Positions 23,309 through 59,495 of a stretch of 61,189 nucleotides of DNA are shown here, piece by piece; the stretch's first letter is position 1; each line of letters starts with the position of its first letter. A model generated the notes under the pieces. The model was not told the origin of the DNA. It ran no database searches and was given only the letters and a program-made list of their open reading frames with translations. The position numbers were made by a program, and so were the translations under genes. Origin of the DNA: a virus; IMG/VR virus record IMGVR_UViG_3300045454_000015, positions 1 to 61,189 of that record. One strand, given 5' to 3'.

Positions 23309-23338
23309 ATGGTCGGTGAGGTTTCGCCGGGGTCAACG
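23309..23338 (-). promoter_or_regulatory. Late-promoter-like motif, copy 1 (CGTTGACCCCGG-...-GACCAT)
   Basis: Variant of the 12-mer, located between the tailspike stop and the lysis cassette. Confidence 0.45.
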
Positions 23339-24886
23339 TCAGAACGGCGTGGGCACCGGGCGGGTGTTGGTGGATTCCACGATGTAGGGTCCATCCCAGC
23401 CGGAAGGAATCCTGTTTGCGTTCACGCCGGTCGAGGTGGTAACGTTCCCGCCGCTTGCGTAGCGAATGCCACGAGCAGAAAGGTTTCGACCGCCAAGCTG
23501 CGTCTGATCGTTGAAGTTGCTAACTGGGGCGTTGCTGAAATAAGCGATGTTCTCGAAAGCAACGAATTCGGCGCCCTCTCTCGGGGACCCAGAGTCGTTA
23601 TTCTGAGGCGCAGCCCCGATGGTTCCGTTCGGCAGAGTTTGCCCAGCCCCACCCAGCAAACTGTCAGCGAATACGACCTTTGAAATCGGGTAAGGATATC
23701 TCTGACCGTTGGAAGCGTCACCTACACGAAGGTTGTTTGCCCCCCAATCAGCCGGTGTGTTCGTGAATGTGGACTCCAAACCACCAAATTTGACCAAACT
23801 GGTAGTAGTCCCCGTGCAGAGCAGATTGTTGTGCCGCCACACACTCTTGAAGTGTGTACCTCGAACCACATGGGCTCCACCAGTCGCGTTGTTTTTATTC
23901 AGCCGCACTCCTTGAACAATGGCCTGAGCTATCGTCAAGAAGAACACATAACTGTCACCTGAATTCCCGCCAATCTCACCGCAGTTCCACAGGGTTGTCC
24001 CGCGGGAGTAGCGAATATTGTTCAGCTCGTTGACGGTTCTCCCGCTGGAGTAACCGTTGTCAAAGTAGTATTCTTGTGCGGCGCCTTGCACCTGCCCAAG
24101 TGACCCATTAATCACTCCACAGAAGTCATGCCCCACTTGCCCGTCGTAAAAAGCGCGGCAGTCAATATTAAGCAGGCGTACATTAGCTGCCCGCTTAAGG
24201 TTCGGAGTGTTCACCCACAGGCGGTTGTCAGGGCGAAACCCTGAAACGATCGGATCGGCCCCAGTCCCTGTCTTGGATATGAGGATGTTATCCAGGCCGG
24301 AAGTGATGATGTCGCCAAGCGATCTGTAATCCCCCCCAGCCTGGAGGGCGTAGTGGGTCCCGCTGGCCCACGCAGGCCATGCACCGGCTCCAGTGGGAAT
24401 CACCACAGGCGCGGCAGGGGCGGTAGTCGTGACGCTGAACGACACTGAGCCTTCGTCACCTACCGCATTCCGGCAACGCACACGCACTTGCCGAGTACCA
24501 ACCTGCGTGATGACGCGACCGAACAGAGGGGGGCCTACATCTTGGTCGCGGGACAAGCCTGAATATGGCCAGGTGCCGCCGAGCGCTTCTCCGTAGTCAG
24601 CACGGTAGCCAATGTTGTGCCATGCGCCCGCTTCCGTGTCGCTGGACGTGTGGTCGCTGCGAGTCCCAGAAGCATCAATGTGCAAAATCAGCGGAGCTAC
24701 ACCAGAGATCGAAGTCACGCCGTCTTGTACGACTACGCTCTGCACAACACCGGAAGCGTCCGCATATGTCACAACCACATGAGCGGCGATGCCAGGCGGC
24801 GGCGGTGGCGGCGGCGGCGGGGGGGGGTCTGCACTGAAACCCGTGAGCTTCTTCGTCGCCAACAGGGCGTGAATGATCTGCTGCAT
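23339..24886 (-). CDS. Tailspike / putative depolymerase with poly-Pro linker, 515 aa
   Basis: Start MQQIIHALL overlaps the upstream stop. An 11-Pro linker is followed by a C-terminal part rich in N/G/T beta-helix-like repeats, with clearly lower GC. Confidence 0.5.
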   Translation of the reverse strand: MQQIIHALLATKKLTGFSADPPPPPPPPPPPGIAAHVVVTYADASGVVQSVVVQDGVTSISGVAPLILHIDASGTRSDHTSSDTEAGAWHNIGYRADYGEALGGTWPYSGLSRDQDVGPPLFGRVITQVGTRQVRVRCRNAVGDEGSVSFSVTTTAPAAPVVIPTGAGAWPAWASGTHYALQAGGDYRSLGDIITSGLDNILISKTGTGADPIVSGFRPDNRLWVNTPNLKRAANVRLLNIDCRAFYDGQVGHDFCGVINGSLGQVQGAAQEYYFDNGYSSGRTVNELNNIRYSRGTTLWNCGEIGGNSGDSYVFFLTIAQAIVQGVRLNKNNATGGAHVVRGTHFKSVWRHNNLLCTGTTTSLVKFGGLESTFTNTPADWGANNLRVGDASNGQRYPYPISKVVFADSLLGGAGQTLPNGTIGAAPQNNDSGSPREGAEFVAFENIAYFSNAPVSNFNDQTQLGGRNLSARGIRYASGGNVTTSTGVNANRIPSGWDGPYIVESTNTRPVPTPF

Positions 24887-25506
24887 CAGTCGAACCTCAA
24901 CACCAGCTCGGGCCGGAAACCGTTGGTTCCTGCGTTGGTGTGGTAGCTCGAATACTGGCCGTCTCCGCGGAGTTGGATGCCATTGGCCGGGGCTGCGCCA
25001 GCCTGCCTCCAAGCCTCCACCACAGCAGGATCTAGCTCAATCTCGATCCACACGCCGTTCGATGCCGGCGTGCTCTGCGACCCAATGGTCGATGCGGAGC
25101 GGTCGCCGCTACCAGTACCGCCGGGCGTTGTCCAAGCCAGGGAGCCACCGATGTCGTAATGGGTCCACGAGATCGTTTGCCAGGCCCTCAGGTTCTCGTG
25201 CACGTTGACCACAGAAGCGCCGAACTGCTCGAACATATAGATGCGGAACGTCGCCCCAGTAATCGGGTTCGGGATGCTTGAGGTGTTGAAGTTAGCGGAG
25301 GGGCGCCACAGCATCGTGTCGCTGTTGACGCCAGGCTCCCAGGTACCTCCGGCAACATTGGACCCGCCGGAAGACCGCATGCCTTCGTTCTGGACGGTGT
25401 TGAAATCGGCGCCGGTGTTTGCGCTGAAAACGATCTGCGACCCACCGCCGCCGCCTGGCTGCCTGCGGCGCGTCACCGCGCCGGCCGTGATGAGGAAGGG
25501 CCTCAT
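24886..25506 (-). CDS. Tail-fibre-associated beta-sandwich-like protein, 206 aa
   Basis: Track ORF with ATGA overlap with the fibre gene. The ending ...GFRPELVLRFD recalls DNRLRE-type domains only weakly. Confidence 0.45.
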   Translation of the reverse strand: MRPFLITAGAVTRRRQPGGGGGSQIVFSANTGADFNTVQNEGMRSSGGSNVAGGTWEPGVNSDTMLWRPSANFNTSSIPNPITGATFRIYMFEQFGASVVNVHENLRAWQTISWTHYDIGGSLAWTTPGGTGSGDRSASTIGSQSTPASNGVWIEIELDPAVVEAWRQAGAAPANGIQLRGDGQYSSYHTNAGTNGFRPELVLRFD

Positions 25507-27842: not shown

Positions 27843-27886
27843 ATCGGCCCTCGTTGATGCGTGGGCAGCCGGTGGGGACTGCCGAA

Positions 27887-27916
27887 AGCATCACACGGGG
27901 CGGGCCGGAGTCAACG
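27887..27916 (-). promoter_or_regulatory. Late-promoter-like motif, copy 2 (CGTTGACTCCGG-...-TGtGATGCT)
   Basis: Lies between the giant gene and the tail-fibre gene. An extended -10-like TG is present. Confidence 0.5.
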
Positions 27917-28030
27917 AGGCATAGCGGCCAGGAGAAGGGCGATGAGGATTGCCCCGACAACGGCCCCGGGGAGCCCGAACTCCCACACCAGGGCGGCGAA
28001 GCCGAAAACGATGGAGGCCACCGCGATCAC
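27911..28030 (-). CDS. Small hydrophobic protein, 39 aa (below the track cutoff)
   Basis: Hand translation gives (V)IAVASIVFGFAALVWEFGLPGAVVGAILIALLLAAMPR. GTG in a GTGA overlap with the giant gene stop. High GC3. Confidence 0.45.
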   Translation of the reverse strand: MIAVASIVFGFAALVWEFGLPGAVVGAILIALLLAAMPR

Positions 28031-31000
28031 TGCAAAGCCTCCCGGATGCCAGGGCGCAAGTGACGCGGCGCGCTTTCTTCCATGCGCTGGGCTCTCGGCT
28101 TGCGCATCTCCCGCACGCGCTTGAGGATGCCCGGCATGTTCACGCGGATGGGCATTTCGGGGTTCTTGGCGTTCCAGTCGGCCAAGCGGTCACGCGCATC
28201 CTGTACCCGCTGCGCATCCCCCTCGAACAGGCCTTTGGCCCAGTCCTCGCGGATGCGCTTGCTAACAGCGTCGTATTGGGCTTGCGCCTCGTACTGGGCT
28301 TGGGCTGCACGTGATTCACGGGCCACGCCAGCGGGTTGCAGTCCCAAGCCCTTGAGCACGGCATCCACCGCGTCAACGTCAGCCACCTTGTAGTCACGCG
28401 AGTTGCGGTACATGCCCGTCTGGTACATATCCAGGGCCTTGGCGGCATTGCGCAGTGCGATCGGCCTCACTTCGCCCTTGAGAGCATCCCGCACGAAGCT
28501 GCCGGCCACCCCGAAGGTTTCCAGCACCTCGTCTTCCTTGCGGCTTTCGCTGGCCTTGAGCACACCCGTGCCGGGCAGGAGGTTGCCGAGGCCGAGGCGG
28601 GCGGACACGTCGAGTGGCACACCCGGGAGTGTACTGAAACCGTGCTGCAAAAAGTCAGCCGCGCCCTGCCCCAGCGTGCGCGCCACCATCGCGTTCATGG
28701 CCTGCTTGGTGCTGAACTGGTAGCCCATGCCCTGGGCGATGCTGTCGAGCACGTCCTGCAGGTCTTCCGCGAACGGCAGGCCCTGGGAGCCGGCCGCGAC
28801 GACCAGGATGGCCAGGGCCAGGGCGCGCTCCTTGGGCGGCAGCCGCTTCAGGAACTCCACGTACTGGATGCTGAAGGTCTTGAAGGTGAACAGCGTCGCG
28901 CCCACCGCGCCGCGGCTCCAATCGGGTCGGTTTCCGCGGTTAAAGACAGACTGCGTCTCGTCGACCGCGTCCTCGGCGAACTTGAAGGGGTCGGCCATGC
29001 CCTGCTCGCGCGCCGTGTTGTAGGCGGCGATGAAGGCCACCCGGCGGTTGAACACCTCGGCCATCTGGAACATGGAGCCCCAGGCCGACAGCAGCGAGCG
29101 CACATACAGGTTCGAGCCCAGCGACCGGCTGGCCTCGGCCTGAAGCTGGAACACCTCCTGCGGCTTGATGACGCCGTCCTTCTCGGCGCGCGACAGGGCC
29201 GCGGCCAGTTCGGCGTCGTCCACCTTCTTGGCCAGCGCCATCTTCATGGCTGCCGTCACCCGGGAGCCGGCCTTGGCCGGGCCACCGAACTGGCTCAGAT
29301 AGGGGAAGGTCTGCGCGAAGGTCTGCGTCAGGTTGACCATCGCCGACGCGATGGAGCCACCGATGTACTGCACGAACAGCAGCGACCGGATGCCCTGCGC
29401 TTCCTCCTTCGGGTCGTTGACGTAGTCGGCCAGCGCGCGGGCCTCGTCCTGCACGTCGCCCTGGCGGATGTTCTCGACCGCGTCGCTGATCCGCTGCGAG
29501 TGCAGTGCGCGCGACGCGGCGCGGGCGTTGCTGGTGATGAAGGCGGCCAGCACGCGCGAGCCGTCGTCGTCGAAGCCCTCGATGCCCTTGCGGCGGATGT
29601 GACGCTTCAGGGCCGACTGCTCGGCCACGGCGTTCTGCAGCCACTTCTGCATCGCCTCGTTCTTCTCGACGCCGAGCATCTCGGCGAACAGCATGGCCGT
29701 CTCCGGCGACACGCCCTTCAGGGCCTCGAACTGCTTCTGAGGCATGACGCTCTGCGACACCTGCAGCCCGCTCTCGCGGAACTTGCGCGCCGCCTTGTTG
29801 GCCTCGGCCTGGCTCTCGTACAGGCCGAAGTAGACGCGCTGGCCTTCGCCGTCGATCACGTCCACGGCGTAGGGGCCGAAGCGCATCAGCGGGGCGTAGC
29901 CGGCCGCCTTGAGGTCGGCGATGCGGTTGACCTTCTCGGCGATGGTGGCCTGCAGCTTGCGCAGGTCTTGCCGGCGCTGCATCAGGTCCGGCGTGTGCTG
30001 GTTCGGCTGGCCGTCGAGGGCCTTCTGCACCGCCTCCAGCCGGCGCTCGACGGCCTCCTTGACGGCCCGCACCGCGTCGCCCGGGGTGTCCGACGAGGCG
30101 GCGCGGCGCAGCGCGTCCAGCATCGTCTCGTAGTCGGTCGGGTTGGCCGACACCATTTCCGGTGCCATGACGCTGACCTGCCGGTACAGGTCGGCCGCGA
30201 GCATGTTGTCCAGGCTCTGGTCGATGGCTGCCCGGCTCTGGCGGTACATCTTGATCGCGCGCTCGCTCATGCCGCGCTGACGGAGCTCGTCGTCTGTCCA
30301 GACGATCCCGCCAGGCTCGGCGCTGTCCGGGTCCACCGGCACGGCGCGGCCGTCCTCGTCGCGGGTGTAGCGCAGCGTGCCGTCGAACAGCGCATCGGAC
30401 GCGGCCTTGATGTCGGCCTTGCGCTGCTTGTAGGCCGCCGGGCTGGCCAGCGTCGGGGCGAGCTTGGCCAGGTCGGAAAGAGTTTCCACCTGGGGCAGCA
30501 TGTCCGGGGCCATCTCCGCGGCCACCGTCGCCATGCGGCTCACGTCCTTCATGAAGTCCTGCACCGCGTAGTAGGCGCGGCCGAACTCCTTGTTGATCTT
30601 GGCCTTGTGGAACTGCGTGCCGATGGTGCGGTGCCACACGCGGTTGAAGCCGCGCTGGGAGGTCGTGCGGTCGGTCAGCCAGTCCTGCACCCCCTGGGGG
30701 ATGGTGTCGCGCAGCACGGCGCGGCTGAAGCGCGTCGGGCCTACTCCTCCGCCTTCACCTTCTTGCGCGCGGCCTGCAGCCTGGCCTTGTGCGCGGGCGT
30801 CATATCCTTCACGCGCGCCTCGACTTCCTTGCGCACCTTGGCGCGGTGCTCGGCGGTCTGCCGCTGCGAAGGTTTGCCAGTTGAGGATGCCATCGTAGGC
30901 CCCTTCCACGTTCTGTTGCGGGATGCCCATGCGCTCCCAGAAGCCTCGGGCCTCGGGGACGATGTTGCTGATGTTGAGGTCGGCGGTCGGGTTGGCGGCC

Positions 31001-34000
31001 AGCAGGGTTTCGATCACGGCACGGCCGACGCCCTGGCCGCGGCCATTGTCGGCGTAGACCTCGATGTCCAGCAGCGACACCGGGCGGCCATTCTCCACCA
31101 GCAGTTCCACATGGCCCAGCACGTCGAAGCCTTCGGCGGGCATGATGGCGTAGCTGACGACCTCCTGGCCTGGCTCGGGGATGACCTCGAAGCGCTCGGT
31201 CGGCTGCGGGGCGGCCAGAACCACGGTGCTGCCGGTGTACTCGGGGAAGCCTTCGGGGGTGCGGGTGGTGGCCACCGTCGGGCGGTCTGGCGTGCGGCGG
31301 CTGAACAGCGGCAGGCCGTTCGCGGCGCGCTGGCGCATGGCGGGGGTGATGGTGAAGCCGGGTTGCTGCATCGGCTTGTAGTCGGGGTTCGCGCGATCCT
31401 GCACCCTGCCGCCGACGCTGGGGCCAACGTCCACCATCTCCACCGCCCCGCCGCCGGTCTTGCGCAGCACGTCCTTCAGCGCGGCCGGCACGATCTTGTC
31501 GTAGAAGGCGCGCATGCCTTCGCCGCCGACCTTGAGGCCGTTGCCACGCATGTCGCCGTAGGGCTGGCCCATGATCCGCTCGGCAACGTCTTTGCCGACG
31601 ATTTCGTCCAGGCGCTTGCCGTCGAACTCGTTGCCGATCGAGCCTCCACCCATTGAGCCGACTGCGCCGTCCGGCTGCAGCATGAACTCGATGTCGTTGC
31701 CATTGTTCGGCGTGATCGTGACGCGCTTCTCGGTGTCGTTGCCGCGGCCAGTCCACGCGATGCTGCGAACCTGCTTGCTCAGGTCATACCGCTCCGCGCT
31801 CTGCTCCCCGTTCACGAACGCCACCTTGTCGTAGCCCTCGTCCACGGCCATCTTGACGATGCGCTTCAGGGCCAGGGCCACCCACTTGTCGGTCTTGTCG
31901 ATGAAGGGGGCGGCAGGCACGCCGGCACGGTTCGGCGCCGTTTCCGTGGCGCTGCGGCTCTGCTCGATCACGCTCCACAGGGCGCCGTCGCGCTTGACCA
32001 CCAGCCGGTTTTCCATGCCGGGCTCGCGGTTGCGCTCCAAGAACGGCTGAAGCTCGCGCATCTTGGCCTGCGCCTGCGCCTCCGTCTCCAGCGTGTCCAG
32101 CGTGTCGGCGTCGAACCACTCGCGCGACTGGGGGATCATGTCAGTGCTCAGGCCCTTGCGGCGGGCGTCCTGGGCGTAGTCGCTCTGGATCTCCTCGACG
32201 AACAGCACGCGCTTGCCGTCCGCGTCGGTGCGGTCGTTGAGGCGGATGTGGGCCAGGACGTTCTTCTGGCTCCAGTGACTGGACGTGTAGTTTGTCTTGT
32301 CAGCACCAAGCGGCCCGCTGGTTCGCATGAAGTCGCGCGCCAAGTCCTGAGCGCGGTCTAGCGTGTAACCAGTCCTTAGCTCTCTGCCGTCAGGGAACAC
32401 GACATTGAAAAGACCGTCTCTCCTTTTAACGATTTTCGGCTGCGGCGCCTCCTTCTGTGGCAGCGTCAGCAGCACCTCCCGGTAGTTGGTGCCGCCGGGG
32501 AGGGTGTATTGGGCGTACTTGGTTGTGTCTGCCGGGACATCGGCGTTTTGCTGCCACTCGGCAATCGCGTCTTCTGGCGAATTGCCCGTGCCCTGAATCT
32601 CTCCGTTCTGGTCAAAGAGCGCGTACACATACTCAGTGTCTGCGCGCACTACCCATCCTCGGGGCAGGCTGGCTTTTGGGCTGCCGCCCAGCACCGTCTC
32701 TGTCACCCGCACGCCGTTGGCGCGCAGGTAGTCCGCCACGGCCTCACGCGACACCTTGCCGGCCTGCATGCCAAGCCAGTCCTCAACGCCGCTCCAAGTC
32801 ACCTCGTCCTGCTTGACGGCGCCCTTGGCCACCAAACCGCGCAGCAGCGTGCGCCAGCCGTCGGCGTTGGCCATCTTCTGGTTCGCGCCCACGATGGCGC
32901 GGTACAGCGGAGAGAAGAAGATCACAGGGTCGGAGTCTCGCCCGAAAACCGTCCCTGCCGTCCTGAACGTAGCCGCCCCGTTGACGCTGACGCTCTCGGC
33001 GGCCAGCACGAAGGCAGCGATGTCGTTGTCGGTCCAGCGGGCCGGGTCAATGGCCGCGGCCACCGTGGGCAGGTTCGCGCGGCGCAGGCTCACGGCAGTC
33101 TGGCGCAGCCACCGGCGGATCGCCGCGATCATGCGCTTGAAGCCGGTGAGCTTGGCCACCTGCTCCACCGGCATGTCGGCCAGTGCTTCCTCCACGGCCT
33201 CGACCCGCGACGAGGCCAGCCCGTCGTCGAGCTTGGCCTGGGCCGCCTGGCGCAGCGCCGGGTTGTCCTTCCACATGGCGTGCATGACCGCGCCCATCTC
33301 GTCCCCGGCACCGAGCATGGACCGGATGCCGTGGTGGCGGACCTCGTGGTAGCCCACCACGAAGCGCATGCGCTCGACGCTGGCGATGTTGCGCGGGAAG
33401 ACGTGGATCTCGCCCTCGTGGTAGGCCGCCTCGACATCGAACTCGGCGCCCTGGCTGCGGATGATGTCGCGCAGGGCCTTGGGCGCCTGCTGCAGCGTCT
33501 CGTGGATGTGGATCGGCGGGGCCTTGGGCAGCGCTTCGCGGATGGCTGCCGTGACGGCGCGGGCGTCGTCCATAGGCACACCGCCGCGGCGGGGGCCGGT
33601 GGAGCGGCTGAATGCTGCGTCGCCATCTCCAGCCGGGTAGTGCTTGTCCAGCACCGTCTTCGCGGCTCGGCGGGCGTTGTCGGTCAGTTGCCGCTGCCAT
33701 GCCTCGTTCTTCGGGCTCCACTTGAACCCGTTGGCCTTGAGGTCTTCGCGCACGGCGTCGCTCGGCTTGCCGTCGAAGATCAGGCGCAGCCTGTCGTCCT
33801 GCGCGTCCTCCACGATCCGCACGCCGTCACGCTCGGACTCCTGCGGGCCTGCCTGCGCCGCGGCCATGCGCGCCTCGGCGTCGGCCAGTCGCTCGCGCAG
33901 CCGGCGAATCTCGGCGTTGTTGTTGGTCAGGCGGTAGTCCGGGAACCCCTTGCGGCCGGCGAAGTCGCCCTTCTTCAGTTCGGCGATCTGCTCGGCCGTG

Positions 34001-37000
34001 AATCCCAACTCTTCCAGCGCCGCATCGTCACCCTTGCGGATGGCGACGTTCGCGGCCTTCATCGTCTCCTGCAGTTCCTCGCGCTCGGCAAGGCGCAGGC
34101 GCACGCTCTCCAGCTCGGACTCCGGGCTGTTGTCGATGGGGCCACGCGCGGCGCGGATCAGGCGCTTGATGCCGCGGGCAAGGTACTGCTGCGCCTCGTC
34201 GGCGCGCTTGCGCTCCGTTTCCATGCGCTTGCGGTTGCGCTCCACCGGGAAGCGGGCCGGGCCTGCAATCATGGATGACATGACGCGGCTGCGGGCCTCC
34301 AGCGTGCGCATGTAGCGTGCGCGGTAGCCCTGCGCCACGTCGGTGAACACCTCGCGGATGCGCTCTACGGCTTTCTCGTCTTGGCCGGCAATCCGTGCGG
34401 CACGGCTCCAGGCATCCTCCAGCGCAGCCATGAACGACTGCTGCTCCTGGCCAGCGCGGACTTCCGGCACATGCGACGTGCCCCGGTGCGCGTTCTGCGC
34501 CACCTCGCGCGGGATGCCAGCGACGGCGGGCATTGGCGCGGGTTCTGCCGGCGCCTCCCCCTCTGCTTCCGCCTCGGCTTGGGGCTGGGCGGCGGGGGCG
34601 GCCTTGCCCCACGCCATGAACGCATCTACTGCGGCCTGCGCATCCTTGGTTCGGTTGTAGACCGAGGTGGCGGCGTCCAGCGCCTCGTCCAGCGCATCCT
34701 CGCTCTTGAAGTCTCGGCGCAGAATCGGCAGGCGGTCGTACTTGACTTCAGCCGGCACGTTGCGGCCTTCATCCAGGGCCTTTCGCAGAGCCTTATCCCT
34801 CTCGATTGACCACAGAGCGAAGTTGCCACTGCCGAACTTCGCCGCGGCGATGGCATCTCGCAACTGGTCGTCCGTGGTGGCCCATGCCGGCTGCGTCAGC
34901 TTCAGGTCAAGCAGACTTCCGCCGTACTCGATCGTCAGCGTGGTGTCGTCTTCCTCCGGCTGCACAGCGGGCGCGGCATCCACCTCCGGTTGCGCGGCAG
35001 GGGCCTCGGCTTCGGGCTCGAACTCACCCACCGCTTCAGCGGTCGGCGTCAGGCCCGCGACCTTTCCAAGGCGCTCCTTGTCGCCCTTCAGCACCTCGGT
35101 GATGTCCAGGGCGCGCGCCGCGGCATAGTCCACTGCGGCTTGAGGGTCGCCTTCGTCAATCATGTTCTCGACTGCGGCCTTGGCCCCTCCGCTACCCCCC
35201 TCAACGCCGAACGTGCTGCCGGCCTCCTTGCGCATGCCGTAGCCGTTGACGCGAGGCGCCACGAACACGGGGAGCTTGTCGCTGAAGCCCGGGGACTTCT
35301 CCACCTTGCGGCGGAAGTCCGCCAGGGCCTCTCGGGTGTTGAGGATGGTGAAAGTCCCGTCGCCCGGCACCTTGATCTTCACGGTGTCTGGTGGTCTGAC
35401 CTTGCCCTCGACGTCCATGCGCCGCAGCAACGTGGCCAGTTGAGTGCGAGCCGCTTCCGGACCGCCGTTGAGCGTGCCGACCAGCTTGTTGCGCGTCTTT
35501 CCGGTGCCGCTGCCGTCGTAGGAGGTGTCGCGCACCTCCCAGTTCCCGTCGCTCGACTGCCGAGCATCGACAGAAAGCGTGCGGTCGCCGAACCTTCGGA
35601 ATCCGCTGATCTCCTTCTTGCCCCTGCGGGTGACGGCTTGACCGACGGCGATATCTGCGTTCAAGACTTCCTCGGTCGGAGCCTTCTCCATCGCTGCGTC
35701 GATCAACCGCAGCGCCTCGCGCTTCATCGTGGAGCGCGGCACGTCCTTGTTCTCGGCCGCCTTAGTGATGGCCTCGTTCACCACCGCCCGGTTCACGGGC
35801 TCGGCGGGCTCGCCAGGGTCTTTGTGGGTTGCCTGCGCCTCCAGCGTCACCGCGCCCGTCGGTCGTAGTGCTGGTTCCTGCTGCGCGCCGCGGCGAGCAA
35901 TGGCCACGATCTCTCGCGCAGTCGCTTCAATAAGCATCGAATCGGAAGGAGCCTTGAACTTTCCGTTGCGCTTGACGCTCTTGATCTTGGCGTTGGCGCG
36001 ACGCTCGAACTCCTTTTCTCCGACAGTAGCGATGGCCTCGCGCATGACTTCAACAGTCGGAACATCATTGATGGCGTTGATCTCCTCCATCGTCGGGCCG
36101 TCGTAAACCTCTGGCGCTGGCCCGTCCTGCTCAGCATCCGACCGCGCCCCCTCATCCCACCCGGCCAGCCATTCGGCCTTCTGGGCCTCGTTGAGTGTGT
36201 CCGGCGGCGTGGCCGGCTCGCCGCGGGCCTGCGCCTTCTTGCCGCGCAGGCGCGGGTCGCGCTGATCGCGCCCGCGCTCGATGGCCGGCGTGCCCACCCG
36301 GGACTCGACCAGGTTGCCCAGCGACATCTCGTCGTTGGCGTTGAGCCCATAGGACTCGGCCACCTTGGCACGCTCTTCGACGTAGGCGTCGTAGCCCTGC
36401 TCGCGCAGCACTTCGGCCAGGCGGTCGGCTTCCACGTCCGCCGGTGCCCGTCCTTGACCGGCTCCAACGGCACGGGTCTTCGCGCGCGCAATGAAGCCAC
36501 CCGTAACCGGCACCACCTCATGGCTGTCCGACAGGCCGCGCTTGTTCACCTCGCGCTGGGCGGCCATCTTCGTGGCGAAGGGCTCCCCGCCTTTGCGGGT
36601 GACCTCTACCCCATCGGCTTGTACGGCGGGGGCTCCGGCATCGGCAGGTCCTGGGGCTCGGGCTGCATCGCCCTCCACTGCCGCTCGCGCTTGACCTGCC
36701 GGGGCTTGGGTTTCGGGCTGGCGGGCTCGGGTCGGTGCGTCCTGGACATCACGGGTCTGGGGCTCCTGTGCTCGTCGGCGCAGGGCCGACAGTTCTCGGG
36801 CGGCGGCCATCATGCCCTGGCTGTCGCCGGCCTCCTTGGCGGCGTCGTAGCGGGCCGTGAGGGTCTCCTCGGTCAGTGCCGCGTCATCTCCTGCGGGTCC
36901 AGCTCCACCAGCCGCAGCCGGCGCAGCATCGGCCGGAACTCGTCCGGGTACGGCTCCTCGGGGTTCAGCAGCCGGTCGTCCATCAGCACCCACGCCTCGG

Positions 37001-46694: not shown

Positions 46695-48364
46695 GGCTGG
46701 CGCAGGTCCTTGGCGGTGAGCGCCAGGCGCAGGGCCTGCACGGAGCCGGCCGATGTTTCCACTTCGGCCTGCCACTCGTCGGCCAGGTTGCCGTCGAGCA
46801 GACGCACCGGATCGCGGCTCCCGACCTCACGATTCAGGCGCTCCACACCATCAGCCCACACACTCACACGCACGGGGTATGACCGCGCCACCACCTGAAG
46901 CCACGAGTAGTTCACGGGCGCGGGGTGGCTGAAGACCTTGGACCGAAACCTCGCCGTCAGCAGCTCCTCTCCGGCATCGAAGCGGCGGATGTCGCCGCCC
47001 TCCAGCAGGTACAGCGCGTCCGAAATGGGGTCGCGGAAGACCGCATCGGCGCGTTGGGTCAGTTCGTAAACGCCGACCGGGTTGCGCGGATCGAGCGCGA
47101 AGCCGCGCCGCACGCCGCCGCCGGCGTCGTAGAAGACGAAGATCAGGCCCTGGTAGCGCCCGGCCACCATCGAAGCGGGGTTGACGTCGGACCATGCCGG
47201 GCCCGGGTTGTCGGCATCGGGCTGGCGGTCGAAGATGCCCCGGGTGAGCACCCGGAAGCCGTCATTGCCGATCCAGCACAGGCCGTCCGGGCCCGCCCAG
47301 GCCGCGCCGTCCTCGAAGGCCACCACCGAGCGCGCCGACAGGCACGGCTGGTTGATCTTGAGCGGGTCGGCCTCCAGGCTGGACGGGTCGGAGCCCGTCA
47401 CCATGTAGACGTCGCCTGTCGTGAAGATGACCATGCGCTGGCCCCACACGGCCTGGGCCACGGCGGTGTGGTTCAGCGCCAGCTCGTTGCGCAGCGGGTA
47501 GGCGTAGAGCTTGAACGGCTCGCAGATGCGCGCGCCCTTGCCGCTGAGGATGCTGGCCATGCCGTTCCACATCGCCACCATGCCGTGCCCGTCGGCCGGC
47601 GGCGGCAGCCACGAGGAGCCCGTGCCCTGAAACCCAGTCTCGAGCACGTCCGAGCCCAGCGCGCCTCCAGCGTCGAAGTAGGTGGTGTCGCCGATGGGGA
47701 TCTCGGCCAGGAAGAAGTATTCGGCGTTGCCGCTGGTGCCCACCTTGCTGCGGTAGATGCGGCGCAGCGTGATGACGTAGTTCCCGGCCGGTGGCGCCGG
47801 CAGGTTGCTCAGGTCCACCGTCGAGCCGGGCCGGGCGAAGATGGCGTTGCTCACGGGCGCCGGGGCGCTTTCCCAGCCGATGTCGTTGACGAAGGTGTGG
47901 GTGTAGGTCCACTCCTCTTGAGGCTCGGTGGTGCCGGCTTCGGTGTTGAGGGTTGCGGTCAGTGCCTGGGTAGGCTGCGGCACGGCCAGCTCACGAACTG
48001 CCACCGGATAGGGCGGCGTGGCCAGGGCGATGGTGTTGTCCGTCCACTTCGGCGTGCCCGAGCCGGTGAAGTAGGTGCGCTCGGTCGGGTCGTCCGTCTC
48101 GAAGCCGCGGATGGCGTGCACCACGGTCGTCCACGACAGCCAGTAGAGGGCCTCGTTGGCCACGTCCTGGCCCATGCGCCAGATGGTCAGGCGCTGCGGC
48201 GAGGTCGGCACGGTGGCCACGGTCTGGGGCGCGCGCCAGGGCCGGAAGTCGCCCTTGCCGGGGCGCTGGTTGACCGAAGCCACGCCCACGCCGTCGGGCA
48301 GTTGCTTGGCGTCCAGCGACTGGTTGGCGCCGATGAAACCGTTGATGGTGAGCGGTGCAGGCAT
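46691..48364 (-). CDS. Tail structural protein, 557 aa
   Basis: Track ORF in the tail block. No motif recognised. Confidence 0.5.
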   Translation of the reverse strand: MPAPLTINGFIGANQSLDAKQLPDGVGVASVNQRPGKGDFRPWRAPQTVATVPTSPQRLTIWRMGQDVANEALYWLSWTTVVHAIRGFETDDPTERTYFTGSGTPKWTDNTIALATPPYPVAVRELAVPQPTQALTATLNTEAGTTEPQEEWTYTHTFVNDIGWESAPAPVSNAIFARPGSTVDLSNLPAPPAGNYVITLRRIYRSKVGTSGNAEYFFLAEIPIGDTTYFDAGGALGSDVLETGFQGTGSSWLPPPADGHGMVAMWNGMASILSGKGARICEPFKLYAYPLRNELALNHTAVAQAVWGQRMVIFTTGDVYMVTGSDPSSLEADPLKINQPCLSARSVVAFEDGAAWAGPDGLCWIGNDGFRVLTRGIFDRQPDADNPGPAWSDVNPASMVAGRYQGLIFVFYDAGGGVRRGFALDPRNPVGVYELTQRADAVFRDPISDALYLLEGGDIRRFDAGEELLTARFRSKVFSHPAPVNYSWLQVVARSYPVRVSVWADGVERLNREVGSRDPVRLLDGNLADEWQAEVETSAGSVQALRLALTAKDLRQP

Positions 48365-48370
48365 GCGTTG

Positions 48371-48400
48371 AGCATCCGGCCAGACGGGCCGGAGTCAACG
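48371..48400 (-). promoter_or_regulatory. Late-promoter-like motif, copy 4 (CGTTGACTCCGG-...-GATGCT)
   Basis: Located in the 37-nt gap between the 237-aa and 557-aa genes. Confidence 0.5.
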
Positions 48401-48401
48401 A

Positions 48402-49115
48402 TCAGAACCAGTACGCCTTGGTGCGCAGCGGGCCGCGGCTGAAACCCCGCGCCACCTGCGCGCCCACGGTGCCGATGCGATCCGAGAACATGCGCATCAG
48501 GTCCGCGCCGGTGCCGGGGTCGCTCCAGTCCTGCTTGGGCATGAGCAGCAGCGAGGCCACGGCGCCCTTGGCGATGTCCTGGCGGTACAGGTCCGCGAAC
48601 TCGTCGGGCAGCCCGGTGGCATCATCCGATGGGCGCAGGGCCGCCTCCACGTGGATCACGGTGCCGGCCTCGGGCGCCGGGTAGACCGCCAGGGTCTTGC
48701 GGTCGCGCGTGAAAGCCAGGTCGGTGTGGGTGCCGCGGCGCCGGAAGGCCACCCCCTTGGAGGCTTCCACCACCTCGATGGGGTCATCGTCCACGGCCAC
48801 CGACAGCAGCTTGACGATCTCCGACTCGGCAGGCGGCGACATCGTGAACTCGGTGGCCACACCATCGGTGGCCGGCACCTCGAAGCCCTCGGTGAGCAAG
48901 GGCTCGCCGCTCTCGGTGAGCAGGGGCGAGCCGCCGGTCGTGAGGATGGGCTCCAGGCCGCCGCGCGTGCCCTCGATGGGGTCGATTTCCATCTGCCACG
49001 CCAGGGTGCGCCGGCAGAAGTCGATGGCCGCATTGCGGATGTGGTGCACGGCCGTCGCGTCGGGCACGCCGGGCACGTAGGGCAGCACGTAGGGGAAGAG
49101 GTCGCGCCAGATCAC
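48402..49115 (-). CDS. Virion structural protein, 237 aa
   Basis: Track ORF with an ATGA-type overlap upstream. Confidence 0.5.
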   Translation of the reverse strand: MIWRDLFPYVLPYVPGVPDATAVHHIRNAAIDFCRRTLAWQMEIDPIEGTRGGLEPILTTGGSPLLTESGEPLLTEGFEVPATDGVATEFTMSPPAESEIVKLLSVAVDDDPIEVVEASKGVAFRRRGTHTDLAFTRDRKTLAVYPAPEAGTVIHVEAALRPSDDATGLPDEFADLYRQDIAKGAVASLLLMPKQDWSDPGTGADLMRMFSDRIGTVGAQVARGFSRGPLRTKAYWF

Positions 49116-51831: not shown

Positions 51832-51895
51832 GAGTTACCTCCATTGAGGGCACACATGAGCACTCCTGCGCTCGAACTCCCCGGTTTCCCGGGAC

Positions 51896-52075
51896 CTATT
51901 GCGGGGTCAACTCCCGCAGTTTTTCGGGTCGGCCCACCGTGACGGCATCGCCGGCCTGAACTCTCATCCGAGCCACTCGCCCGGATTTCGATTCGAGTGT
52001 CACAAGGATTTCGCCGGAGTCAACGGCCCCGGGTTTCAGGGTGAAACGCACCGTCTCACCCTCCCTGACATCCAT
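51896..52075 (-). CDS. Doubtful small ORF, 59 aa (CsrA-like pattern?)
   Basis: MDVREGETVRFTL...GEILVTLESKSGRVARMRVQAGDAVTVGRPE. GC3 is only about 40 of 59 codons. Promoter-motif copy 5 lies inside it. Confidence 0.3.
   Translation of the reverse strand: MDVREGETVRFTLKPGAVDSGEILVTLESKSGRVARMRVQAGDAVTVGRPEKLRELTPQ
51996..52025 (-). promoter_or_regulatory. Late-promoter-like motif, copy 5 (CGTTGACTCCGG-...-TGtGACACT)
   Basis: Located in the 284-nt scaffold-capsid gap. An extended -10-like TG is present. Confidence 0.45.
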
Positions 52076-52115
52076 CAGCAATCCGCGGCCTTTGCTCACC
52101 GGCGCTCCTTGTGTC

Positions 52116-55949: not shown

Positions 55950-57388
55950 AGGATCTTGGGGTTGCGCTCGCGCCGCTCACGGCGCGGCTGAGGTTCGGTG
56001 GTGGCCCTGGCCAGGCCTGAGACGATCAGGTAGCGCGTTGCGTCCATGAGGTGGTCGTTCTCCTTGACGATGGCGCCCTTCTCGTCGCGTCGGTACAGCC
56101 GGTACTCGCCGAGCCAGTTCTGCAGGCTGCGGAAGACCTTGAGGCGGCCGGTGGACAGGCGCTGCCACACGTCGTAGATGCCGGCCTCGCGTGCGTTGTT
56201 GGCCGGCTGTAGGTCCAGGCCGTGCTCCCGGTAGGTTTCGATGAGCTTCTCGCCGTCTTTCTGGCTTCGCCCCCGCGCGGCCGGGTCGATCACGCCGGGT
56301 ATCCACTTGCCCTTCGCCTTGATCGCGTCGGCGTGGATGCTTGGCTCTGCTTGACCGCGGTAGTGCTCGGCAGTCAGATACACCACGTCGTTCTCTCGGT
56401 CCCACGCTGCCCAGGCTGCGGCTGTGCGATTCCATCCCACGTCCATGCCATAGGATCGCGGCCAGTGCTCCGGGATGTCGAAGGGCGCCACCACGATGTC
56501 TTCCTCCGGCACCGGGTAGATCGCTCCCGCCCCCAGGCTGGGAATGCCCTTTGTTCGGGCGTCGCGCTGGTGGGGCATCAGCTTGGCCAGCATCTTGATC
56601 TTCACGTCCTCGTCCAGGTGAGGCACGTCGTCCCATCCGCACTGCACGATGGCCCGGCTGGCCGCGGCGTCTGTGCTGGTCTTCTGGAGGCTCACCACAA
56701 GCGGCGTCAAGCCGTTCAGGGGCGTGAAAGTGAGCATCGAGATGCCTCGGCGCGTCATCAAGCGCACCAGGCCCTCCTCGTACACGTCCTCGGGGCACTC
56801 TTCGTCGGCCCAGAACACGTCCAGCTCGAAGCCCTGGAAGATCTCGCGGCCCTGCTCGTAGCTGCGCAGCCACAGCTCCGACTCGCCGCCGGTCACGTGG
56901 CGCACGGTCACGCGCTCGATGGCGCCCTTGACGTGTGGCCGCGGGATGTAGCTGATGATGTCTTGACCAGGGATCAGCCCCGTGCCGATGTTCTCCGGGC
57001 GGTCGGTCGTCCCGCCCAGCAGCTTGAGCTGCAGGATGTCGCGCGTGGTTTCGTGGGTGTCGCCGGACGCTAGCGCCCGGATCGGCCGGTTGAACCTGCG
57101 CCCCTCCCACCACGCAGGGTACTTGCCCGTAAGGTGGTACGCGATCTCGCAGCCTGCGGCCACGGTCTTGCCGGTCCTGTTGCCCGCGATGAACGCCCGC
57201 TCGTCCTTCTCGGCGCCGAGCCGGAAGAACTCGACGTGCTTGGGGTACAGATCGCGTCGCAGCGGCCCATCGTCCGGGAACATGCCGTCGAGCAGGCGCA
57301 TGCGGCTACGCCGCTCGACCTCTCCCAGCAGCACCGCCAGTTCGGCCTTGTCCTCAGGGCTCAGAGTCGAAAGGTCAATCGCCCCCAT
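55946..57388 (-). CDS. terL: Terminase large subunit, 480 aa
   Basis: Walker A is IAGNRTGKT. The nuclease half contains ...DVGWNRTAAAWAAWD...HLMDATRY.... Start MGAIDLS overlaps the terS end. Confidence 0.85.
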   Translation of the reverse strand: MGAIDLSTLSPEDKAELAVLLGEVERRSRMRLLDGMFPDDGPLRRDLYPKHVEFFRLGAEKDERAFIAGNRTGKTVAAGCEIAYHLTGKYPAWWEGRRFNRPIRALASGDTHETTRDILQLKLLGGTTDRPENIGTGLIPGQDIISYIPRPHVKGAIERVTVRHVTGGESELWLRSYEQGREIFQGFELDVFWADEECPEDVYEEGLVRLMTRRGISMLTFTPLNGLTPLVVSLQKTSTDAAASRAIVQCGWDDVPHLDEDVKIKMLAKLMPHQRDARTKGIPSLGAGAIYPVPEEDIVVAPFDIPEHWPRSYGMDVGWNRTAAAWAAWDRENDVVYLTAEHYRGQAEPSIHADAIKAKGKWIPGVIDPAARGRSQKDGEKLIETYREHGLDLQPANNAREAGIYDVWQRLSTGRLKVFRSLQNWLGEYRLYRRDEKGAIVKENDHLMDATRYLIVSGLARATTEPQPRRERRERNPKIL

Positions 57389-58106
57389 CTGCGGCGCCCT
57401 CCGTCTTCGGCGGCGTGATGGCCGTGATCCCAAACCGTGCCAGCCGCTTGGCCAGCTCGTCGTCGCTCATGGACCGAGCATCGATGGTCGCGTCGACCTG
57501 CACCTTGTCGCCGTAGACCCGCGGCTTGAGCTTCGCCGCCACCCATTTGCGTGCATCAACGCGCAACTTCGCGCGCTGCACCGCTGCATGGTTCGTCACC
57601 GGCCGGCCGTCTTCGTCTTCTGCCAGGTCGCTGCCGTCGTCGTCGCTGATGGACACGATCTCGTCGGCCAGCTTGTCGGAGCGGTCCTCGCGCGCACGCG
57701 CGTATTTGGCGTCTCTCTCAGGGTCGGCGGCGATCCAATCGCGGATCGTGCTGTAGCTCAGGCCCTGCTCTTGTGAGTAGGCCCACAAGTTTCCGCCGGA
57801 CACGATGTAGTCGCACAGGGCCGTGATGGCACGAGCGGGGTCGGCGCTCCACTTCTGCCACGGGGTTTGCGGGGTCTCTGCGGCTGCTGCCGGTGCCGGC
57901 TTTGCCTTCTTGGAGCGGGCGCCCGGAGTTGAACCGGGCGACTCCGACGTAGAAGGACGGCGCCCTGCCAGTTGAGCTACGCCCCCCGCGGGTTGCTTGG
58001 GTTTGGCCGCGACCTTCTTGGCCGCCGGGCGCTTTGCCGGGGCCTTCTTCGGGTCAGGGGTGGTCGCCTTGGCCTTGGTGGGCTTCGGCGTACTCTTGCG
58101 CGCCAT
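57375..58106 (-). CDS. terS: Terminase small subunit, 243 aa
   Basis: Lys/Pro-rich N-terminus, LSYSTIRDWIA HTH-like segment, and KLRVDARKWVAAKLKPRVYGDK, a typical TerS C-terminal motif. Confidence 0.65.
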   Translation of the reverse strand: MARKSTPKPTKAKATTPDPKKAPAKRPAAKKVAAKPKQPAGGVAQLAGRRPSTSESPGSTPGARSKKAKPAPAAAAETPQTPWQKWSADPARAITALCDYIVSGGNLWAYSQEQGLSYSTIRDWIAADPERDAKYARAREDRSDKLADEIVSISDDDGSDLAEDEDGRPVTNHAAVQRAKLRVDARKWVAAKLKPRVYGDKVQVDATIDARSMSDDELAKRLARFGITAITPPKTEGAADGGD

Positions 58107-58223
58107 CCGTGTGTCCTCGTGGTGGTGGGCAGCCGCGAGGGAAAGAACGGCCCAGGGCACCAGGCCCCGGGCGTTCCACCAGTCCCCACTGGCTGCGATG
58201 GCAACTGCTTACCATCAAGGATG

Positions 58224-58253
58224 AGTAGAACCTGGGTTTTGCCGGAGTCAACG
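58224..58253 (-). promoter_or_regulatory. Late-promoter-like motif, copy 6 (CGTTGACTCCGG-...-TCTACT)
   Basis: Lies about 120-140 nt upstream of terS, back-to-back with the plus-strand cassette promoter. Confidence 0.5.
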
Positions 58254-58269: not shown

Positions 58270-58297
58270 TTGACTTCACACCAATGTGGTGTATAGT
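58270..58297 (+). promoter_or_regulatory. Strong sigma70-type promoter with an operator palindrome
   Basis: TTGACT (58270..58275), a 16-nt spacer, then TATAGT (58292..58297). The palindrome CACCA-ATG-TGGTG (58279..58291) fills the spacer. Confidence 0.7.
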
Positions 58298-58364
58298 TCA
58301 GGCATGGTGATCGAGTTGATCGCCACCGACGCCAGGCGGGTCCTGGCTCTCTGAGGAGATCATC

Positions 58365-58637
58365 ATGAGCACCCGCACCACCTTTTTCACCCTCCGGGCA
58401 CCGGGCCCGGCAGTACTGGTCGCCGACGCCTGCGAGGCCCTGCCCGACACGGGCGAGCACGCGCGCCGGATGGCTCTGACCGAGCACTCGGTCATCAAGA
58501 CCGGCCACCGCGCCGGCCACTGGAGCCGCGAGGCGCTGGAGCGTCTGGCCACCCGTCACGGGATGGCGCTGGTATCCGCCTACTCGATCGCCCGCGACAG
58601 CAATGGATGGATCGAGGCGTCGCGCAGCAGTATCTAA
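58365..58637 (+). CDS. Cassette gene A, unknown, 90 aa
   Basis: Track ORF with SD gaggag. Oriented opposite to all flanking genes. Confidence 0.55.
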   Translation: MSTRTTFFTLRAPGPAVLVADACEALPDTGEHARRMALTEHSVIKTGHRAGHWSREALERLATRHGMALVSAYSIARDSNGWIEASRSSI

Positions 58638-58694
58638 CTCCCACCCCCGGCCCTGCACGCGGGGCCTGCGCACAGAACGCACGAAAGGACCATC

Positions 58695-59012
58695 ATGAGC
58701 ACCACCTACGTCATCCACTGCGAGCCCGGCTACTTCGAGGGCGACATCCACGGCCGTGACAAGCCCTACATCCTGCTCAGCGAGCGCGACGGGCGAGCCA
58801 TCGCCCTGGCCTCCAGCGACGAGGCCGAGCGCATCGCTGCGATGATGGAGCCCTCGGGCGGCGTGCAGCTCGACGACAACCAGCACTCCCTGCCGACCTA
58901 CAGCGTCCAGGCCGCCCCTGCCGGCACGGCGCCGATGACGATGCGCGAGGCCATGCGGGCGCTCGACCTGCACCACGACTACCGCGAAGACGGCTCCCGC
59001 ATCACGGCATGA
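58695..59012 (+). CDS. Cassette gene B, unknown, 105 aa
   Basis: Track ORF with SD aaaggac. Confidence 0.55.
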   Translation: MSTTYVIHCEPGYFEGDIHGRDKPYILLSERDGRAIALASSDEAERIAAMMEPSGGVQLDDNQHSLPTYSVQAAPAGTAPMTMREAMRALDLHHDYREDGSRITA

Positions 59013-59257
59013 CCAGCAAGCACTACAGGTGGCAGCAGCGCTGGCGGCGCGAGCCTTCGGGCCATCTGCTGCATGACAGCGGCCTGCGCGTGCTCGTGAC
59101 GCGAGGGCCGGACTACACCGACCTGCAGGCCTCGCCCGACACGCTGGAAGCCTGGCAGGCCTTCGAGGCTGCGCGCGGCGTGCCGATGCACGACATGCTG
59201 GCGAGGCTGCAGCGCCTGATCCGGGAGGCCGAGCAATGGCACAGACTGAATGCGTGA
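59009..59257 (+). CDS. Cassette gene C, unknown, 82 aa
   Basis: Track ORF with ATGA overlap with gene B. Confidence 0.55.
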   Translation: MTSKHYRWQQRWRREPSGHLLHDSGLRVLVTRGPDYTDLQASPDTLEAWQAFEAARGVPMHDMLARLQRLIREAEQWHRLNA

Positions 59258-59472
59258 TCTATTCCATCGCGCCACCGCTGCCCGAGGACATCGTGACTGC
59301 CCGGCTCATGGCTGGGCACACCCAGTCCCAGGCTGCTGCATGCGTCCACCGCCCAGGCTACCGCTCGTGGCAGAACTGGGAGCGCGGCACCGCCCAGATG
59401 CCCGCCGACACGTGGGAGCTGTACCTGCTCAAGACAGGGCAGCACCCCGTGCACACGCTCCGAAAACGATAG
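59236..59472 (+). CDS. Cassette gene D, XRE-type HTH regulator, 78 aa
   Basis: EDIVTARLMAGHTQSQAAACVHRPGYRSWQNWERGTAQMP is an XRE HTH pattern. Last gene of the cassette. Confidence 0.65.
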   Translation: MAQTECVIYSIAPPLPEDIVTARLMAGHTQSQAAACVHRPGYRSWQNWERGTAQMPADTWELYLLKTGQHPVHTLRKR

Positions 59473-59495
59473 CCGCCCGCGACCCGGAGTCAACG
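59466..59495 (-). promoter_or_regulatory. Late-promoter-like motif, copy 7 (CGTTGACTCCGG-...-TATCGT)
   Basis: The TGA inside TTGACT is the stop codon of the 75-aa gene. The -10 overlaps the stop of cassette gene D. It fires antisense into the cassette. Confidence 0.5.

Follow-up and report, generated by a model that had tools for sequence, protein, structure and literature searches.

The virus record IMGVR_UViG_3300045454_000015 of IMG/VR, analysed over its whole length of 61,189 nucleotides (nt) and called the window below, carries in its late genes seven copies of one 12-bp element, CGTTGAC(T/C)CCGG. The best overall explanation, which we regard as probable, is that these copies are late promoters of the sigma70 type in which a conserved block is read by a phage factor, and that this factor comes from an early operon repressed by CI. 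The parts of this explanation are not equally secure. From their sequence the seven copies are very probably sigma70-type promoters; we lean to the view that the bases next to the -35 hexamer are read by a dedicated phage factor; and the winged-helix-like protein encoded at 6632-7108 is put forward as that factor tentatively. The window begins and ends with the same 127 bases (1-127 and 61063-61189, an exact 127-bp terminal overlap), which shows it to be the complete genome of a phage, circularly closed, with about 61.06 kb and 67% G+C.

An exact search of the window with CGTTGACYCCGG returns seven matches where about 0.03 are expected, all on the minus strand, which is that of the late genes, with starts at 23327, 27905, 42795, 48389, 52014, 58242 and 59484. 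The initial annotation had listed the same copies, and had named a comparison with shuffled sequence beforehand as a refuting test; none of 100 shuffles reaches seven matches. If one or two mismatches are allowed, 14 extra matches appear on the two strands against about 17 expected, i.e. at chance level, in agreement with the earlier statement that neither the other strand nor the early regions have a convincing copy. The copies are confined to 23.3-59.5 kb of the late strand, and the immunity and early regions contain none, either with up to two mismatches or by weight-matrix scan. No published description of the motif in a phage context was found, and no published report of repeated late promoters in Bcep22-like phages; the structural genes of the window are distant kin of those of Bcep22, PEp14 and GP4-type podophages, with about 35% identity in the capsid protein.

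When the seven copies are aligned, they form an invariant, sharply bounded 12-bp block, upstream of which nothing is conserved. Downstream of it, A is found at alignment position +25 in six of the seven copies, T at +29 in all and A at +36 in five. If the TTGACT of six copies (TTGACC in one) is taken as the -35 hexamer, +25 and +29 would be positions -11 and -7 of a -10 hexamer, separated from it by a spacer of 16 nt in every copy. This hexamer is weak, with A at position 2 in 6/7 copies and T at position 6 in 7/7, and the predicted start, 7 nt past it, is A in five copies. The alignment bears out the 16-nt spacing and the -10 hexamers listed earlier, as well as two sub-family flanks, CCGGCCCG...GATGCT in copies 4 and 6 and CCGGCGAAAYC in copies 3 and 7 (the copies are numbered from the highest coordinate down). 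Note that the -10 blocks played no part in finding the copies, and hence provide an independent check of the geometry. A weight matrix built from clade B alone, a group of relatives described below, ranks the seven copies 1-6 and 8 on both strands of the window, and their -10 blocks lie at the 96.5-99.98 percentile of all window positions. Motif, geometry, strand and position are thus matters of observation, and from them we infer promoter activity.

How deeply is the element conserved? A search of viral contigs with the exact 12-mer and the A/T signature gave mostly single chance matches, its useful results being one 58-kb contig matched twice and contig L023. The close relatives L201, L202 and L205, about 90% identical to the window in nucleotide sequence, retain copies 1-3, and at copy 1 in L201 and L205 the 12-mer and the -10 hexamer are unchanged while the spacer differs. 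Clade B (L206-L237; capsid about 46% identical to that of the window, portal identity within the clade down to 53%, G+C 51-67%) carries CGTTGACTCCG(A/G). In 372 kb of clade-B sequence the late strand contains 56 occurrences of the 9-mer core GTTGACTCC and the opposite strand none; in 854 kb of clade A (L001-L005 and L121-L200, whose head genes are closest to those of the window, capsid 71%) the numbers on the two strands are 7 and 3. Three positions recur in clade B: before terS, inside an open reading frame (ORF) for a CsrA-like protein, and directly past the stop codon of a gene like that at 48402-49115 of the window. In the CsrA-like ORF part of the motif is read as the codons GTT GAC TCC, and these show no synonymous change in more than 13 distinct diverged sequences, whose proteins are only 45-50% identical to that of the window; with so high a G+C content, GTT should be disfavoured among the valine codons. 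In clade A this place is occupied by other residues. The profile pooled from 48 distinct instances reads C-GTTGACTCCG-(A/G), a 16-nt spacer and a -10 of (G/T)ATACT, with A2 of the -10 in 37/48, T6 in 47/48 and G at -5 in 36/48. These comparisons of sequence give strong support to a sigma70-type promoter geometry, in the window and independently in its relatives, and strong support also to purifying selection on the flanks of the -35 across diverged phages, synonymous sites included. The earlier proposals of a late-gene-specific family of sigma70-like promoters, and of CG and CCGG flanks that go beyond the need of sigma70, both hold in this wider set.

Clade A itself lacks the 12-mer and has a looser GGTTGAC(A/T)-16-GAYNNT before terS and the capsid gene. 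Its late promoters share GGTTGAC(A/T), then GCATGG, the TG of which is at the extended -10 position, then GACNNT (signature sites at 2648, 9303 and 9896 of L002 and at 3273 and 9896 of L003), and with these conserved features of their own they are a sister promoter family. In related phages the same 16-nt spacing goes with looser versions of the element, GGTTGACA... or GGTTGACT....

Where do the copies lie with respect to genes? They start at or directly past stop codons, and 0-160 nt before start codons with a Shine-Dalgarno sequence. All are on the late strand, copy 2 standing before a tRNA and copy 1, the exception, facing an antisense cassette. The claim that they mark every late-operon boundary was too strong, since three late-strand gaps of more than 30 nt (41060/40893, 22039/21990 and 21517/21294) have no motif. 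Copy 1 (59459-59495; this and all the following copies on the minus strand) has its 12-mer at 59484-59495, the -35 TTGACT at 59488-59493, the -10 TATCGT at 59466-59471 and the predicted start at 59459, and is also flagged by a generic sigma70 scan. The TGA within its motif is the stop codon of a 75-amino-acid gene (59490-59717) at the Q position of the lambda-like layout, and transcription from it would run antisense through four plus-strand genes at 58365-59472.

Copy 2, the terS-proximal one (58217-58253; 12-mer 58242-58253, -10 TCTACT 58224-58229, predicted start about 58217), has a -10 without A at position 2, and so have the terS-type copies of clade B, where its orthologues show the -10 TGCAAT and a similar spacer, AAAACCC..GT. 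It had been placed upstream of terS; this is right as to position, with a terminator-like hairpin and then a tRNA call intervening before the conserved terS domain. The hairpin (58150-58172, minus strand) lies some 45 nt downstream of copy 2, has nine pairs, eight of them G-C, and is followed by CGTTCTTTCC; the 41-nt segment around it, 58140-58180, is at about -26 kcal/mol. The tRNA-Arg(TCT) at 57914-57986 (minus) is called by ARAGORN and by Rfam (45 bits), as the only Rfam match in the window. It lies in frame within the Lys/Pro/Ala-rich, low-complexity N-terminal part of a long terS ORF (ATG at about 58106), a region conserved in L201; either the tRNA is embedded in coding sequence or the start of terS has been mis-assigned. 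As a separate observation, at the terS-proximal promoter of clade B (L206 6840-6885, with equivalents in L207, L208, L209 and L228) the spacer sequence AAAACCCCGT pairs with ACGGGGTTT about 25 nt past the -10, a T-rich run follows, and an inverted partial motif, AGTCAATTCAACG, lies between the paired arms. Such a structure might terminate transcripts that read through from the early operon, or might have a regulatory role.

Copy 3, the capsid promoter (51989-52025; 12-mer 52014-52025, -10 GACACT 51996-52001, TG at -15/-14, predicted start about 51989), had been assigned to the gap between the scaffold and capsid genes. It is instead inside the conserved 67-amino-acid CsrA-like ORF at 51896-52099, where the motif is translated as A-V-D-S-G, and a predicted leader of about 158 nt separates its start from the capsid ATG at 51831. 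A possible decayed copy, AGTTGACCCCGC, without a usable -10 and with a low matrix score, is at the end of the same ORF (51901-51912, minus); this is the position of the capsid promoter in clade-A relatives. Copy 4 (48364-48400; 12-mer 48389-48400, -10 GATGCT 48371-48376) begins 1 nt past the stop codon of 48402-49115. Its predicted start, 48364, is the A of the ATG of a gene for a 557-amino-acid internal virion protein, which has no Shine-Dalgarno sequence, and a leaderless mRNA is predicted; a protein search of viral contigs with 46691-48364 gave nothing usable.

Copy 5 (42770-42806; 12-mer 42795-42806, -10 TACGGT 42777-42782, predicted start 42770) stands before the GNAT gene at 42144-42752, and an exact 12-mer precedes a GNAT homologue in L023/L213 too. 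Copy 6 (27880-27916; 12-mer 27905-27916, -10 GATGCT 27887-27892, TG at -15/-14, predicted start 27880) lies between the gene of a giant 3643-amino-acid protein and a 779-amino-acid tail-fibre gene; no orthologue with the exact motif was found for it, and L242 has TTGACT-16-TTCAAT at the equivalent place. Copy 7, the TTGACC variant (23302-23338; -10 GACCAT 23309-23314, predicted start 23302), directly follows the stop codon of 23339-25012 and directly precedes the lysis cassette, with a predicted leader of about 20 nt and GAGG before the ATG at 23282. A search of metagenome contigs with the endolysin protein (gene at 22039-22989, minus, PHROG match) gave nothing usable for comparing copy 7.

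Is a phage factor needed to explain these promoters? They might be plain host sigma70 promoters, their flanks kept by a preference of the polymerase itself or spread and homogenised by recombination, and the timing of late expression coming only from read-through, copy number or further layers such as the CsrA-like protein. The canonical geometry agrees with this, and so do the looser GTTGAC(A/T) versions of the relatives with the same 16-nt spacing; the frequent G at -5 fits contacts of sigma70 region 1.2, which prefers G there. In L055, a clade-B genome, an exact copy (7005-7034, plus strand; IMGVR_UViG_3300034073_002726, 57075-57104) is on the strand opposite the late genes. It adjoins the integrase, precedes a PemK/MazF-like ORF (assigned by eye) and has a 20-nt flank in common with copy 3 of the window, and hence this promoter type may also drive an accessory gene. 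Moreover, no sigma factor and no known activator family was found in the proteins scanned. Plain sigma70 promoters do not readily account, however, for five extra positions that are invariant over 48 sites (45-75% protein identity) with synonymous sites frozen, while the spacer and the -10 drift freely. Other canonical promoters of the genome, TTGACT-16-TATAGT at 58270-58297 and TTGACA-17-TAAATT at 9765-9793, are not flanked by the CG and CCGG of the motif, and their -10 hexamers are rich in A+T, whereas those of the late family are weak and G+C-rich. An unregulated promoter before the lysis cassette is also hard to square with lysogeny. On balance we consider this explanation unlikely.

The initial annotation had suggested a phage activator or an alternative sigma specificity. 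We lean to the activator part. An alternative sigma factor or a phage RNA polymerase finds no support: no such domain is present in the 30 proteins scanned, among which no member of the Ogr or Mor/C families was detected either, and the -10 and -5 signature is that of the housekeeping sigma factor.

What, then, speaks for an activator made by the phage? The genome is temperate and lambda-like in layout, with an integrase, a Cro-like gene and a repressor. The immunity region holds the repressor gene (8404-8856, plus; 150 amino acids, without a Pfam match) and the Cro/YdaS-like gene (8060-8356, minus); the tyrosine integrase (19828-20859) belongs to the plus-strand early operon. Five palindromes of the form AAGCG-N3-CGCTT, in two clusters at 8333-8392 and 9754-9788, flank the repressor gene as its operators, where 0.07 would be expected. 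They are unrelated to the late motif, and therefore the motif is not a repressor site. Since the phage is temperate and copy 7 lies directly before the endolysin and lysis genes, the late promoters must be off in the lysogen. This speaks for positive control through a phage factor, and for that role a product of the repressed early operon is favoured. In L201 (1-513) a repressor of the Peptidase_S24 (LexA/CI) type is found where the window has its 150-amino-acid repressor, and this difference between relatives that are 90% identical points to an immunity swap.

Which protein could be the activator? All window proteins were screened against clades A and B. The one non-structural protein widely shared with clade B has 94 amino acids (7105-7389, minus) with four invariant cysteines and invariant W24, P15 and P79, and is called the Cys4 protein here; it is a candidate partner. 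Its family comprises about 277 clusters at 50% identity and has no match in Pfam, PHROG or NCBIfam, and its predicted model is confident (pLDDT 88), yet no structural neighbour was found in PDB or BFVD. In the relatives the protein is encoded either near Cro or directly before terS. A homologue with 36% identity is present in one clade-A genome that lacks the motif; for this reason the Cys4 protein cannot alone explain the specificity, and its case as the sole specificity factor is weakened.

The Cys4 gene is always directly upstream of a winged-helix-like gene, and the product of the latter is the best candidate for the trans-acting factor. In the window it is encoded at 6632-7108 (minus) and has 158 amino acids, the N-terminal 70 or so of which, about half of the protein, are homologous to the product of a clade-B gene of some 70 codons directly downstream of the Cys4 gene. 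A profile of this short clade-B protein matches the window (2e-27), L201 and 14 motif-bearing clade-B loci, and it has no match in the clade-A genome or in the motif-poor clade-B members L232, L233 and L236. In 8 of the 14 loci the stop codon of the short gene is located from 6 nt inside to 9 nt before the first late promoter. In L215 and L223 its TGA is the TGA of TTGACT, as happens with another gene at copy 1 of the window, and in L220 a one-mismatch variant of the motif overlaps the stop codon. The sequence pattern, together with weak matches to an IclR-type winged helix-turn-helix in PDB (E about 0.9) and to HTH_IclR (0.004) and HTH_24 (0.011) in Pfam, suggests that the N-terminal part of 6632-7108 is a winged helix. 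A tblastn search of deposited phages with the Cys4 and winged-helix-like proteins gave no match. Co-occurrence and adjacency with the motif are observed and make the winged-helix-like protein a lead, not a demonstration; the dependence of the promoters on a factor, the identity of this factor and its mode of action are inferred.

Two regulators proposed in the initial annotation are rejected. The 75-amino-acid protein at the Q position (59490-59717) has four close homologues only, two of which (L203 and L204) are on motif-free contigs. The helix-turn-helix protein of the antisense cassette (59236-59472) and the other cassette genes have no family matches, nor any homologue in a motif-bearing relative.

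A possible course of events can then be described. The host housekeeping (sigma70-type) RNA polymerase would read the seven late promoters by the -35 TTGACT, the 16-nt spacer, the weak -10 (G/T-A-Y-N-N-T) and a purine start. These promoters would head successive late blocks, namely packaging, capsid, virion and tail genes, a GNAT-led block, tail fibre and lysis. The invariant block in which the -35 is embedded, C-G-TTGACT-C-C-G-(G/A), would be the recognition site of a phage-encoded DNA-binding protein. After loss of the repressor, the minus-strand early operon would make the winged-helix-like protein, perhaps with the Cys4 protein, and the former would recognise CGTTGACTCCG(G/A) at all seven promoters, at or beside the -35. 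Factor and sigma70 region 4 together might let promoters whose -10 is too weak initiate, and so the late genes, those for lysis among them, would remain silent in the lysogen and come on jointly after induction.

Several points weigh against a dedicated factor of this kind. The classical activator-dependent late promoters of P2 and Mu have a poor -35, opposite to the pairing of a consensus -35 and a weak -10 seen here, and a protein bound to the block would overlap the site of sigma region 4. The winged-helix assignment rests on the weak matches given above. The co-occurrence of gene and motif is phylogenetically confounded, since the loci that lack the gene are at the same time the most distant, and in the window the candidate genes are about 13 kb upstream of the first late promoter and do not adjoin it. 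Copies 6 and 7 are without comparative support. In view of the looser versions in related phages, part of the conservation could be the host polymerase's own preference, and the opposite-strand copy in L055 might imply activity without late factors.

Do similar late promoter sets exist? In P2, 186 and P4 (Ogr, B, Delta), in Mu (C) and in P1 (Lpa), late units each have a promoter sharing an element beyond the need of sigma70, and a small phage protein, the product of an earlier operon under repressor control, activates these units jointly. The window is alike in that several late promoters share a conserved non-sigma70 element (C-G, C-C-G-(G/A)). Ogr is a small zinc-binding protein, and the small candidates here include a Cys4 protein. 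The promoters are built differently: the P2 activator site is a dyad at about -55, upstream of a poor -35, and the Mu site overlaps a non-consensus -35, whereas here the -35 is consensus-like, the -10 weak, the site asymmetric and nothing conserved upstream. Unlike the known activators, the candidates here have no match to Ogr/Delta, Mor/C or other known families in Pfam, PHROG or NCBIfam. The arrangement is a multi-promoter late regulon of a temperate phage, with an unusual promoter anatomy and unrecognised candidate regulators. For the proposed way of reading the block, a likeness is found in the T4 middle promoters (MotA box, AsiA, 'sigma appropriation') and in PhoB, a winged-helix protein, where a DNA-binding protein of phage or host reads a box in the -35 region via sigma region 4. 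Here too a conserved box lies in the -35 region of a sigma70-type promoter, with a proposed reader and sigma region 4. The MotA/PhoB-type box replaces the -35 hexamer, while that of the window is itself close to consensus and belongs to the conserved box.

The lambda-like layout raises another question, whether the copies are loading sites for an antiterminator like lambda Q. The promoters would then be constitutive, their transcripts would stop at nearby terminators, and a phage protein, by binding the conserved bases between -35 and -10, would modify the polymerase and so enable read-through. The order of genes is lambda-like, copy 1 is a TTGACT promoter at the Q position, at the end of the early-right operon, and the candidate genes of clade B are exactly at the Q position. 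In lambda the Q-binding element lies between -35 and -10, which is where the conserved CCG(G/A) is found here. Shiga-toxin (Stx) phages have a pR'-tR'-tRNA arrangement, and copy 2 is likewise followed by a strong terminator-like hairpin after about 45 nt and then by a tRNA. The window departs from this scheme in having seven or more sites where one suffices, mostly without a leader terminator; the leaders of copies 4, 5 and 7, of 0-20 nt, leave no room for one. Terminator-like sites in the late region are at chance frequency, with a convincing downstream hairpin at copy 2 only. No Q homologue was found, for Pfam and PHROG scans of the 75-, 136-, 94- and 158-amino-acid proteins (59490-59717, 59714-60124, 7105-7389 and 6632-7108) detect no Q-family domain. 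Antitermination of this type appears improbable.

Could the uniformity of the copies come from recombination? A repeated promoter may serve as short homology for the swap or deletion of modules, as has been proposed for the PeSL cassettes of T4-type lytic myoviruses, in which early promoters are joined to a stem-loop terminator (PMC2839356, PMC4122927). In the window, too, a conserved promoter is repeated at the borders of variable modules, and copies may bound indels between relatives. Three cases of indels bounded by the motif are suggestive, within a set of few complete genomes. In L213 the 48402-like gene, the motif and the GNAT gene follow one another, where in the window a 5.6-kb stretch with genes for internal virion protein and tail-tip fibre separates copy 4 from copy 5; the plus-strand cassette is enclosed by copies 1 and 2; and L203 and L204 depart from the window sequence some 15 nt upstream of copy 1 and onward, a break near the motif and not at it. 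Copies 6 and 7 bracket fibre genes, and a RecT/exonuclease pair is present at 11104-12701 (assigned by eye). Against such a role as the cause of conservation, 12 bp is very short for homologous exchange, the repeated unit being only these 12 bp and a loose -10 and, unlike PeSLs, having no conserved stem-loop, and recombination alone leaves the frozen synonymous sites and the -10 spacing unexplained. It is quite improbable as the whole explanation, and it is compatible with sigma70-type promoters read by a phage factor as a side effect of their repetition.

The least probable alternative, to which we give very little credence, is that of repressor sites of the L5 'stoperator' type, which would block initiation or elongation of late transcription in the lysogen. 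Stoperators are asymmetric 12-13-mers with a -35-like TTGAC; many copies are found in the short spaces between genes, oriented in step with transcription, and in cluster A mycobacteriophages they lie in both arms of the genome and have the same sequence as the operator of the early promoter (PMC9283540). The late motif resembles them in being an asymmetric 12-mer with TTGAC, in many copies in short intergenic spaces and oriented with transcription (cf. PMC9283540), but it is confined to late genes and absent from early promoters, the repressor has five classical palindromic operators of its own unlike the motif, the -10 at fixed spacing, the -5 G and the purine at +1 are conserved although needless for a roadblock, and the candidate binder is encoded in the repressed early operon, outside the immunity region. 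The unrelated operators and the absence of the motif from the immunity and early regions argue against a stoperator-like site and favour positive control.

What would sigma70-type late promoters read by a phage factor mean for phages of this kind? Temperate phages of lambda-like order are mostly assumed to have one late promoter under Q antitermination. Here, and in a broad set of metagenomic relatives, one highly conserved promoter recurs along the late region, and neither a Q, an Ogr, a C nor a sigma factor is recognisable. If the proposed factor is real, it would define a family of late regulators that is new and whose target, of only 12 bp, is easily tested; late transcription units could be predicted straight from sequence in an uncultured lineage; and an orthogonal promoter-activator pair for high-G+C hosts would be at hand. 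The copies around fibre and accessory modules offer a concrete case for how regulatory repeats shape phage mosaicism. One may go further and speculate, doubtful as the sum of these claims is, that a two-gene module, the winged-helix-like binder of about 70 amino acids and the 94-amino-acid Cys4 protein, is the late switch of a large uncultured group of lambda-order temperate podophages. It would stand in for Q and read an extended -35 that includes the sigma70 hexamer, by a cooperative or sigma region 4-remodelling mode that is undescribed for phage late activators, and the repeated promoter would double as a joint for the exchange of tail-fibre, accessory and defence modules.

The genes around the promoters were mapped by the G+C content of third codon positions together with family scans. 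The late genes run on the minus strand from 60.7 down to 21.0 kb. The minus-strand early operon, with DUF1376 replication-type genes, methylases, NinB and HNH genes, crosses the window ends into the late genes, and the plus-strand early operon contains recombination genes besides the integrase. A near-identity DNA search of deposited phages gave no match to the window, and its nearest named relative is a Roseateles genome bin.

The 67-amino-acid ORF between the scaffold and capsid genes (51896-52099, minus), within which copy 3 is located, matches the PHROG family 'CsrA-like regulator' with E 1e-7. It was compared, together with the hairpins near it, in L001-L005 and L206-L231. The capsid leader contains a hairpin (51840-51880, minus) with GGA in its loop (GAGCGCAGGAGTGCTC), which is kept in relatives with compensatory changes of paired bases. 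A similar hairpin, CGCGCA(A/G)GAGTGCG, overlaps the terS start in the window (58090-58106, minus) and in clade B. From these features it looks like the phage has a CsrA-type protein with putative binding sites on the capsid and terS mRNAs.

The antisense cassette bracketed by copies 1 and 2 (58270-59472, plus) has its own promoter, the TTGACT-16-TATAGT mentioned above, and four small genes of 90, 105, 82 and 78 codons; the 78-amino-acid product is HTH-like by eye. It may be a toxin-antitoxin or defence cassette, and if so, late transcription from copy 1 would oppose it. Finally, the giant 3643-amino-acid ORF of the late region (28027-38958, minus) has a sub-threshold SPOR-domain match only, and its C-terminal 600 amino acids are 44-66% identical in four viral contigs and 26% identical in a fifth.

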